Below are positions 43,600 to 45,300 of a stretch of DNA of 64,000 nt, piece by piece. The notes below the pieces were generated by a model, which was given only the letters and a program-made list of their open reading frames with translations, had not been told where the DNA came from and searched no databases. Both the position numbers and the translations under genes were made by a program. Position 1 is the stretch's first letter. Each line of letters opens with the position of its first letter. Origin of the DNA: Escherichia coli (GTDB lineage: Bacteria; Pseudomonadota; Gammaproteobacteria; Enterobacterales; Enterobacteriaceae). The stretch lies in the NCBI RefSeq assembly GCF_022846255.1, contig NZ_AP025682.1, one strand, 5' to 3'.

Positions 43600-45300
43600 C
43601 GGACACTCTCGTGTAAAAAGCTACCCTGTCTATGGATATAGCGATATCCACTCATCAAGCGTGGACTGAATGATATTCAGCTCCATATGGGCGGAAACCT
43701 GGAGGATAAATACGATTTCGCCGTTGGAATCAAGGTTGTTCTGCAATATCTACCAGACTGCTTCAATTTATCTGTTTTGGCAGTGCAATAATCTTAATTT
43801 AACTATTTGAAGATGATGATATTGTCAGATGCCAGAAATTTAGTAATCTGGAGAACCGTGTCTATGATCACTAAATATTAAAGTAATAGTCGATAATTCA
43901 GTAGCACATCGGGTAATATAACGTATTGATACATAATCATATTAAAAAATTCGTGATTAAATAACATAAGAATATGTTTTATTATCATTAAAAAACCTTC
44001 TATTTCCATCATCCTTAAGATAATAAAACAGCGAATGATGGATAACTTGACCAGAAAAACAAGCAAGCATATAAAATTAAAAAATATGATTCCACTTTCA
44101 TTTTTATAAAATGGCATCGTGAAGAGCGAGTTGATAATGCTGCAATGCATCAGCGTCCTGTCCAGCAGTTTCATAAATTTTGGCAATGTTATAATAGGAG
44201 TTAGCGCGCGTTGTCGCCGCATTTACCCCACTCGCTAACGAGATCGCTTTACGATTTGCCCAAATTGCTTCCGCTATGTTGCCATTTTTCTGATACGCCA
44301 GACCCAGGTTACTAAATGCCTGTCCGTAATTGCCGTCTAATTCTGTTGCCTGTTGGAAGAGTTGAATGGCTTGCTCAAGTTGACCGGTTTTATAAACAGC
44401 TTCACCTTCGCGATTATATTTTCTTGCCAGTTGAGTATCTCCACTGTTTTGCATCGCAGGCGAAGCCGGAGCTGAAGAGTCCGTCGCAGGCATTATCACA
44501 GTGGCTAAATCCCTGACGTCTAATGTGGTGTCGTTAAAATTGGCGCTGGTAACAGAGTTGATATCTTCAAACTCGCCGTTTGGATTGAGTTTAAACACGG
44601 TCCAGATGTTCCCTCGTTTTCCAGCAGGGACACTATAACTACGTACCAGGGAGCTCCCTACATAAACAAACACTCTTGCCTTACTGGCAGAGAGATAATT
44701 ACTGTTGGGCAACCCTTTATTGCTATAGTCCTGCACGGCATAGATGTAACTTTCACCAAAATGCTTTTTGCTGATAGTGACAGTTTCTGGTCCATAGCTA
44801 TCCGTATCATCAACATCCAGATTGGCATCAGTTCCCTCTTTACTATCAAAATAGATATGTCCGCCAGGGAAGATCAAATGCGAATCAAGATCAAAAGGCT
44901 TTTCGCCCCAGCTCAAAACTACACGCATGCCATCCAGATTCGTCATCACCGGACTGATAGCATAAGTCATGCCAGCGCACGGACATTTGACCACCAGATT
45001 GGAATACCCCTCTTTTTTGACGATTAATAGAGCATCTTTATTATCAGCAAATGAAGTCCCCAAACTAATGCTGCCCGAAGTATTTGTGGTTCCAGAAACA
45101 GATTGTGCGCCATTGCGTTGCAGCGTCATCGATGCTCCTTCAATGCGTTTATCTTTCACTGTCGCACTTAAAATATCGATATTTACATCGGCCGCATAAA
45201 CGTCCGAATTTATACCCATCAGGGCCAGAGCAACCGGCAGAACAATTTTCTTCTTGTATAAATGCTTTTACAGAACGGAGAGGGGATATTTTGCCGGGCA
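43600..45300. other. AT-rich strain-specific segment between cydAB regulatory region and sucD/sdhX (boundaries approximate)
   Basis: Composition visibly more A+T-rich than the flanking core genes; carries one ORF; no integrase or flanking direct repeats recognised. Confidence 0.55.
44104..45219 (-). CDS. Hypothetical multi-domain protein: signal-peptide-like N-terminus (encoded upstream of first ATG), beta-rich N-terminal and central domains, Pro/Ser/Ala linker, three C-terminal TPR repeats
   Basis: 371 aa ORF-track ORF; TPR-like repeats recognisable in the last 110 residues; in-frame upstream codons 45267-45220 encode KHLYKKKIVLPVALAL. Confidence 0.6.
   Translation of the reverse strand: MGINSDVYAADVNIDILSATVKDKRIEGASMTLQRNGAQSVSGTTNTSGSISLGTSFADNKDALLIVKKEGYSNLVVKCPCAGMTYAISPVMTNLDGMRVVLSWGEKPFDLDSHLIFPGGHIYFDSKEGTDANLDVDDTDSYGPETVTISKKHFGESYIYAVQDYSNKGLPNSNYLSASKARVFVYVGSSLVRSYSVPAGKRGNIWTVFKLNPNGEFEDINSVTSANFNDTTLDVRDLATVIMPATDSSAPASPAMQNSGDTQLARKYNREGEAVYKTGQLEQAIQLFQQATELDGNYGQAFSNLGLAYQKNGNIAEAIWANRKAISLASGVNAATTRANSYYNIAKIYETAGQDADALQHYQLALHDAIL

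Follow-up and report, generated by a model that had tools for sequence, protein, structure and literature searches.

The tetratricopeptide repeat gene between sucD and cydA in an Escherichia coli genome is most likely a decaying allele of a conserved exported protein

Between sucD (45459-46328, minus strand) and cydA (41207-42778, minus strand) on contig NZ_AP025682.1 of the Escherichia coli assembly GCF_022846255.1 lies an open reading frame (ORF) which in sister RefSeq genomes is annotated, at the same coordinates, as a 'tetratricopeptide repeat protein'. The question raised by this locus is whether the ORF encodes a working periplasmic protein. The window analysed is a stretch of 64,000 nucleotides (nt), to which the positions below and in Table 1 refer. 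An earlier note on this DNA had described the ORF product as an unusual combination of beta-rich modules with a CPC motif, a Pro/Ser/Ala linker and three C-terminal tetratricopeptide repeats (TPRs), and had proposed a periplasmic binding or scaffolding role. The ORF was recovered with all the residues quoted in that note and is located on the minus strand; the plus-strand frame over the same interval is riddled with stops. It is a real gene and not a chance ORF, since 143 contigs carry a recorded protein identical to the product of the window ORF, under the name 'tetratricopeptide repeat protein [Escherichia coli]', the gene is carried by about 1110 of 5426 complete E. coli genomes, and 5509 related clusters were found among protein cluster representatives.

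Sequence comparison identifies the ORF as a damaged, derived form of a gene whose product is a conserved protein of about 397 amino acids (aa), exported by the Sec route. That the allele is damaged and that the intact family works as a periplasmic adaptor is the best joint explanation of the data, and we give this combination a somewhat better than even chance of being right.

Lesions of the window allele and decay in its sisters

The lesions came to light when the intact allele L002 was compared in an alignment with the window allele and three of its sisters. The intact E. coli version is a protein of 397 aa (WP_000725054.1), which starts with MKKIVLPVALALLGMNAGAYA/ADV, a classical Sec signal peptide, and ends with ...QHYQLAYTEKNKPSYEEAIARVKTKM. 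Three lesions are common to all the sucD-adjacent alleles aligned, one in the start codon, one in the Shine-Dalgarno sequence and a 260-bp deletion at the 3' end. The former start codon is AAG at 45255-45253, where the intact allele has ATG (T to A at 45254), and no further start is available upstream in frame because of an in-frame TAA at 45270-45268. The first ATG in the window corresponds to residue 13 of the old signal peptide, past the hydrophobic core (the number of a window residue is that of the intact residue minus 12). The deletion took the last 20 codons, the stop codon and about 200 bp downstream, including the hairpin after the stop, and the frame now continues with LHDAIL before it ends. 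Gone from the window allele is also the capping helix, residues 384-396 in the model of the intact allele, two residues of which, Y386 and R392, are shared without exception by 21 full-length representatives of the family.

By inspection, no export signal was seen in the annotated product, the N-terminus of which is not hydrophobic in the window. A hydrophobic N-terminus is present in all 21 full-length representatives, and a signal peptide was seen by inspection in the intact allele and in the outgroups. A product made from the first usable ATG would be without the export signal, cytoplasmic, and without the C-terminal cap. Since this ATG lies inside the signal peptide and the cap is lost, the allele is most likely non-functional, and we are fairly confident that it is either that or at least not exported. 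With its central body still unscarred, it is most likely an early-stage pseudogene. The periplasmic role suggested earlier can apply to the intact family, but it is not straightforward for the window allele, where the start, the Shine-Dalgarno sequence and the C-terminal helix are lost.

The sister alleles carry further damage. The sister variant that is found most widely (called as 289 aa, in 5447 index blocks) has TAG in place of TGG at the codon equal to 44262-44260. Allele L003 (strain FHI_NMBU_03), which is identical to the window over the 234-nt intergenic region from sucD to the ORF, carries a +1 frameshift, and its annotation is that of a pseudogene. CSC is found instead of CPC in L001 and L004, and the invariant YGPE is replaced by YGSE in L004 and by YGSK in some alleles. 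The mutations private to single alleles amount to 13 non-synonymous changes, among them a nonsense codon, P156S, V220M and E362G, and 8 synonymous ones. A rare variant, P0285 (E. coli, 2 contigs; window about 45265-45300), reads MPGKISPLRSVKHLYKKKIVLPVALAL..., and the loss of one nt in the A-run at GTAAAAGC apparently joins an upstream ATG (window about 45297) to the frame, restoring the long N-terminus and the core of the signal peptide. This is not a true rescue, because the variant also has the premature stop.

Several observations nevertheless speak for an allele that is still in use. RefSeq treats it as a normal coding sequence, the frame of 371 codons is open, and no substitution has occurred at the family-invariant positions of the window body. 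A near-cognate ATT, codon 4 at 45246-45244, is preceded by AAGAAG, created three nt 5' of it by the same change of ATG to AAG, and might in principle serve as the start of a protein with the hydrophobic core still in place. The pairwise ratio of non-synonymous to synonymous substitution rates (dN/dS) is low, 0.13-0.24, and 0.23-0.24 among the lesion-sharing alleles, all of which have the AAG codon; this could equally mean that the product is still made. The allele is also common, with the exact protein on the 143 contigs and a sucD-adjacent gene in 546 complete genomes. A functional protein would then be initiated at this ATT, at the CTG two codons on, or by read-through from the sdh-suc operon, VLPVALALMGINSDVYA/AD would export it, and the six-residue tail would be tolerated. 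We consider this unlikely. E. coli initiates only very inefficiently at AUU and CUG, and the explanation would have to accommodate three independent lesions, at the start codon, the Shine-Dalgarno sequence and the conserved C-terminal helix. It would also have to account for sister alleles that share these lesions and gather nonsense, frameshift and invariant-site changes, which is unexpected under selection. The low dN/dS can be explained in another way, as it may be inherited from selection that acted before the lesions arose or be imported by recombination with intact alleles; the 5' third of the window allele is visibly L002-like, in a mosaic pattern.

Table 1. Features of the gene and its upstream neighbourhood in the 64,000-nt window
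Feature	Position	Strand	Remarks
ORF, 371 aa and stop	44104..45219	minus	Begins at an internal Met, residue 13 of the ancestral signal peptide
Degraded translation-initiation region	45263..45270	minus	Shine-Dalgarno AAGGA changed to AAGCA (45267-45263; G to C at 45264)
Remnant of the first 12 signal-peptide codons, in frame (KKKIVLPVALAL)	45220..45255	minus	
N-terminal beta-sandwich, CarboxypepD_reg/prealbumin-like, window aa ~10-92	44944..45192	minus	Seven strands in the AlphaFold2 model
CPC motif, aa 79-81	44985-44977	minus	Inside the N-terminal sandwich
YfaP-like beta-sandwich, window aa 93-228 (~135 aa)	44536..44943	minus	Ten strands in the AlphaFold2 model
Pro/Ser/Ala-rich flexible linker, aa 229-258	44446..44535	minus	pLDDT 59-73; <50 at intact residues 259-262
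Three tetratricopeptide repeats, window aa 259-365	44125..44445	minus	
Deletion scar and foreign tail	44104..44126	minus	260-bp deletion, junction about 44127/44126
SdhX small RNA (3' untranslated region of sucD)	45358..45458	minus	K-12, with sdhX annotated, is 98% identical over 161 nt
SdhX terminator hairpin	45383-45366	minus	Terminator scan

Domain architecture of the intact family

The intact family protein, of about 397 aa, consists of a signal peptide, a CarboxypepD_reg/prealbumin-like sandwich, a YfaP-like sandwich, a flexible linker, three TPRs and a capping helix. The first search for protein homologues gave near-identical E. coli sequences only, and the diversity came from a HMMER search with the beta region against 1.8 billion cluster representatives, which yielded the 5509 related clusters; 90 homologues were aligned. 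An AlphaFold2 model of the intact allele, made with this alignment (pLDDT 91.3, pTM 0.87), has in intact numbering a 7-strand sandwich at 22-104, a 10-strand sandwich at 105-240, the linker at 241-270 and seven helices at 271-396, and in the model these helices are the three TPRs and the capping helix. A single-sequence AlphaFold2 model of the intact protein was discarded, with a pLDDT below 50 over residues 1-270. Homologues in AFDB superpose over their full length, with TM scores of 0.87-0.90 over about 385 columns, and the predicted arrangement of the modules is therefore conserved.

Pfam gave no match in window aa 1-250, and the beta region of the 90 homologues gave CarboxypepD_reg only. 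The TPR matches that the earlier note had expected were found at window aa 266-298, 300-329 and 339-366 (TPR_1/TPR_2), with TPR_11 at E 2.1e-9 and TPR_12 at E 1.6e-7, and no characterised family was matched over the full length. NCBIfam gave TPR matches only, all of them sub-threshold. Together with the helices in the AlphaFold2 model, the Pfam matches bear out the three C-terminal TPRs after a Pro/Ser/Ala linker; the linker itself differs in sequence and length between orthologues. The domain composition called unusual in the earlier note thus stands, but it is not rare. Hundreds of species have full-length orthologues, 546 relatives came up when one genome per species was scanned, and NCBI already lists the exact protein. 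Peptide-binding modules of three TPRs and a capping helix, with 17-21% identity, are known from Hop/Sti1 (TPR1, 2A and 2B), PP5 and SGT, and LpoP and PilF are examples from the bacterial envelope in the same match list. Unlike in the carboxylate clamp of Hop, where it is Asn, the residue after the TPR1 Gly is Glu in the family (read by eye). The family differs from these modules also in having surface motifs of its own, the conserved QAYSNLGL, WANRKAI and YYNIA.IYE, and the window allele in lacking the capping helix.

The N-terminal module had been read as a small Ig/prealbumin-like sandwich. The Pfam CarboxypepD_reg model (PF13620) does not match the window protein itself; it matches 3 of the 90 homologues at E<=1e-3 and 10 at E<=0.1, the domain being present in only 32 of the 90. 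A profile of the domain matches the Cna-B repeats of a collagen adhesin (6fwv) with E 1.2e-4, and the SusC N-terminal and transthyretin-like chains weakly. The seven predicted strands, the CarboxypepD_reg matches in the homologues and the Cna-B match all agree with the earlier reading. The CPC motif is present in the ORF as described, its Pro is invariant and its second Cys is conserved in more than 90%, but a strict Cys pair it is not, the first Cys being replaced by Gly or Ser in 5 of 32 homologues.

For the second module a DUF2135/YfaP-like domain had been guessed. The Pfam DUF2135 hidden Markov model (PF09906) gave no match to the window protein or to the intact allele and is absent from the list of families found in the 90 homologues, but hhalign aligns the module to residues 140-253 of YfaP with probabilities of 97.7% (E 1.4e-12) and 98.1% (E 6.6e-14). 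This alignment pairs the motifs RxVLSW, DLDxH, LDxD and GYGPE, and by this measure the module and the C-terminal domain of E. coli YfaP are homologues. IMG also names the protein COG4676, YfaP/DUF2135 family. The near-invariant motifs of the domain are RxVLxW, P-x-DLD-x-H, LDVDD, GPET and a W, and the near-invariant residues are R111, V113, L114, W116, P120, D122, L123, D124, H126, L146, D147, D149, G155, P156, E157, T158, T160 and W218. The Pfam DUF2135 model has 48 positions and covers only YfaP 199-244, the least conserved third of the homologous domain, which extends over about 140-253. In K-12 yfaP (L005:5368-6144) the strongest motifs (RLVLSW, DLDLH, LDMD and GYGPE) lie outside the model, and because of this the model misses a domain family of more than 5000 clusters. 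A PDB profile search with the YfaP-like domain gave no credible match (best E 1.7), and a match to ToxS in a single-sequence PDB search (E 0.27) was rejected as chance.

Proteins of up to 3375 aa contain the YfaP-like domain as well, with copy numbers of 1-4. CarboxypepD_reg accompanies it in 43 of 45 proteins with other architectures, and such proteins also bear PKD, T9SS-tail, SLH or cell-wall-binding domains. From these combinations the YfaP-like domain is seen to be a mobile extracytoplasmic module, and CarboxypepD_reg and the YfaP-like domain together form a conserved supermodule. The surface proteins with SLH, subtilisin, Cna-B, PKD or T9SS-tail domains have the same didomain as the family (Foldseek matches in AFDB, E 1e-17 to 1e-21, about 230-280 columns). 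They are unlike it in being large and multi-domain, often with repeated copies, and in having neither the TPR module nor the conserved KCPC junction.

A putative periplasmic adaptor and its candidate partner

Orthologous loci were searched with an alignment of 7 sequences in one genome per species. The search gave the 546 relatives mentioned above, and the loci of the best 80 of the 546, all full-length orthologues, were compared. They come from many Pseudomonas species, Pectobacterium, Yersinia, Enterobacter, Limnobaculum, Dyella, Luteibacter, Tahibacter, Cupriavidus, Pseudoduganella, Methylovulum, Sideroxydans and Nitrosomonadales. At 24 of these 80 loci, and at one metagenome locus, a CE4/NodB deacetylase gene is situated directly downstream on the same strand. 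Its product is secreted and about 375 aa long, the aligned part begins 58-210 nt past the stop codon of the family gene, and it matches Pfam Polysacc_deac_1 with E 1.6e-15, the best PDB matches being peptidoglycan GlcNAc deacetylases. The loci with a CE4 neighbour belong to at least 10 genera in two classes, the Beta- and Gammaproteobacteria, and since the genera span both classes the adjacency is more than inherited synteny. The link emerged from the comparison of the 80 loci; four single metagenome or genome contexts showed no common neighbour.

Some further observations were made on the CE4 neighbours and on the copy number of the family gene. E. coli YadE was rejected as an orthologue of the CE4 neighbour, since the generic TFDDG motif alone aligns. 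In P0123, a metagenome representative of 267 aa, the beta-didomain runs into a CE4 motif region (...FPKVSSEIDLF...FFLTFDDGP...) and the TPRs are skipped. It was not accepted as a Rosetta-stone fusion, being a single record which can be a genuine fusion or deletion or an assembly artefact. Tandem paralogues of the family are found at L078:7001-8116 and 8171-9445 (Sideroxydans), followed by a CE4 deacetylase gene, and at L006:6001-7188 and 7521-8714.

Judged from its context, the likeliest role of the intact family would be that of a periplasmic adaptor. The CarboxypepD_reg and YfaP-like didomain would bind an envelope glycan or polymer, or a protein, probably via a metal-binding acidic (Asp/His/Glu) site, while the 3-TPR module would dock a partner protein, for which the best candidate is the secreted CE4 (NodB-type) deacetylase encoded downstream. 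The two genes would make up a peptidoglycan- or polysaccharide-deacetylation cassette, of which the Enterobacterales would have kept the adaptor only and this E. coli lineage would now be losing it. Periplasmic TPR scaffolds that dock modifying enzymes are known from exopolysaccharide systems, PgaA with PgaB, PelB with PelA, BcsC and AlgK. The family resembles them in that its TPR gene stands beside a CE4-type deacetylase gene at the 24 loci. It is unlike them in having three TPRs only, no outer-membrane porin domain and no synthase or export genes nearby; compared to PgaB and PelA, the CE4 neighbour is closer to peptidoglycan and chitin deacetylases, and the E. coli locus is without one. A more specific form of the proposal is that the intact family is the dedicated targeting or activating subunit of an undescribed secreted CE4 deacetylase, in a two-gene envelope-glycan cassette across Beta- and Gammaproteobacteria. 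The YfaP-like domain would then be a metal-dependent binding module shared with macroglobulin partners, and E. coli would be discarding an orphaned adaptor. This we put forward tentatively, as a possibility that has the odds against it.

Against the adaptor proposal it has to be said that the CE4 neighbour is missing at the window and, among the 80 loci, at every Enterobacterales locus and at most Pseudomonas loci. In the P. fluorescens group a recQ-like gene is situated downstream instead. Since the adjacency is seen in a minority of the loci, the functional link to CE4 is guilt by association. In both PDB fold searches the result lists were filled by TPR matches.

A quite different partner is suggested by YfaP itself. 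In Pseudomonas aeruginosa the periplasmic COG4676 proteins MagA and MagF each bind the periplasmic macroglobulin MagD 1:1 (PMC3735191 Table 2; PMC5764988), and YfaP-like domains can therefore be protein-binding modules. The intact family could in the same way bind the macroglobulin (MG) domains of a periplasmic alpha-2-macroglobulin (A2M), YfaS or YfhM in E. coli, with the TPRs adding a partner and the CE4 adjacency being incidental. The homology to YfaP (b2225) found by hhalign, the YfaP/DUF2135 name in IMG and the co-purification of MagA and MagF with MagD, which they bind 1:1, are in line with this. The family shares with YfaP, MagA and MagF the second beta domain (YfaP 140-253, with R-x-V-L-x-W, D-L-D-x-H, L-D-x-D and GYGPE), and these are signal-peptide periplasmic proteins, as the intact family is. 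The identity to YfaP is only about 25%, however, and the N-terminal domain is another one, the TPR module is added and no A2M binding is known. The family gene is also placed outside the type II A2M operons (yfaA-T-S-Q-P and magABCDEF), its neighbours being sucD/SdhX and cydA in Enterobacterales and CE4 or recQ-like genes elsewhere, and no A2M gene adjoins it in the loci examined. The occurrence of the YfaP-like domain in thousands of surface proteins of many architectures points to a general binding or structural module, and the CE4 adjacency recurs in two bacterial classes. Taken together, this makes macroglobulin binding improbable. We find it just as improbable that the beta-didomain is a structural stalk or spacer and the protein a periplasmic TPR scaffold of a general kind, whose partner would have nothing to do with CE4 enzymes or macroglobulins. 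The 1-4 tandem copies of the didomain in very large surface proteins would fit such a spacer, as would the gene neighbours, which are unconserved in most loci. The conserved charged cluster D122, D124, H126, D147, D149 and E157 is on the other hand typical of a ligand or metal site, and the predicted full-length arrangement is rigid and recurs in the AFDB homologues (pTM 0.87; TM 0.87-0.90). The periplasmic adaptor remains the reading that we prefer for the intact family.

The locus, its history and what the gene means

About 80% of the complete E. coli genomes, K-12 included, are without the gene. The sucD-adjacent damaged arrangement is found in about 546 complete genomes, and about as many carry the gene intact, downstream of mngB. 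The orthologues of Pseudocitrobacter (76% identity) and Pectobacterium have the ATG, the signal peptide and the Y..AI.R.K helix, and their locus is sucABCD-gene-cydAB. Since the 397-aa form occurs in the outgroups at the sucD-cydA site as well, it is the ancestral one, and the position of the gene between sucD and cydA is old in Enterobacterales. An origin of the sucD-adjacent arrangement through a deletion of mngRAB is rejected, since the outgroup Enterobacterales have sucD-gene-cydA.

In mngRAB-carrying E. coli, the stretch after mngB (L002:4850-4930, as compared to window 45330-45400) resembles a diverged second copy of the SdhX terminator, GGTCATCTCCGGATGGCCTTTTTG as compared to GGCCATCTTATGATGGCCTTTTTT, followed by TAATCTGAAAAGT in both, which points to an insertion of the mng island at this place or to its loss from there by recombination. 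Downstream of the orthologue in Pseudocitrobacter vendiensis (L014:5600-12543) there are ORFs of 655 and 880 aa, the sizes of mngA and mngB. If they are these genes, the mng island is on the opposite side of the gene in P. vendiensis as compared to E. coli.

SdhX and its terminator are situated immediately upstream of the ORF, which therefore lies about 100 nt behind a terminator. Rfam 15 gave no match at the gathering threshold in 42500-46000, SdhX included. Sigma-70 promoter scans upstream of the gene found no consensus site in the intact or the window allele, a result that is uninformative. On the other side of the ORF, the 1.3-kb intergenic stretch to cydA (42779-44103, 27-39% GC) has no gene annotated in the sister RefSeq genomes. 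It holds short AT-rich ORFs only, for example one of 114 aa at 43878-44222 (minus strand), which overlaps the 3' end of the ORF and is probably spurious. The part next to cydA, 42700-43157 (about 460 bp), shares only 83% identity with K-12, an unusual degree of divergence for core DNA of E. coli. K-12 is without a counterpart of 43157-45360 (2.2 kb, the ORF and about 950 bp of AT-rich DNA), and mngRAB is not in the window. Because of this divergence, the stretch lacking in K-12 and the absence of mngRAB, the cydAB regulatory region may differ between lineages.

A literature search on YfaP/DUF2135 and the RefSeq accessions found no study of this protein. As far as we have found, the combination of domains and its coupling to CE4 are undescribed, while the sequence itself is already catalogued, and none of these findings will greatly surprise a specialist. 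The uncharacterised family can now be tested. Its YfaP-like domain is much larger and far more common than the Pfam DUF2135 model would indicate and is nearly always accompanied by CarboxypepD_reg, and the TPR version is recurrently coupled to CE4. For E. coli, the RefSeq 'tetratricopeptide repeat protein' at this locus is most likely a dying gene, not to be counted as a working periplasmic protein of the strain. The suc-cyd locus offers a series of alleles, intact in about half of the carriers, truncated at both ends, broken by nonsense or frameshift mutations, or absent, which is useful for studies of gene loss in E. coli.

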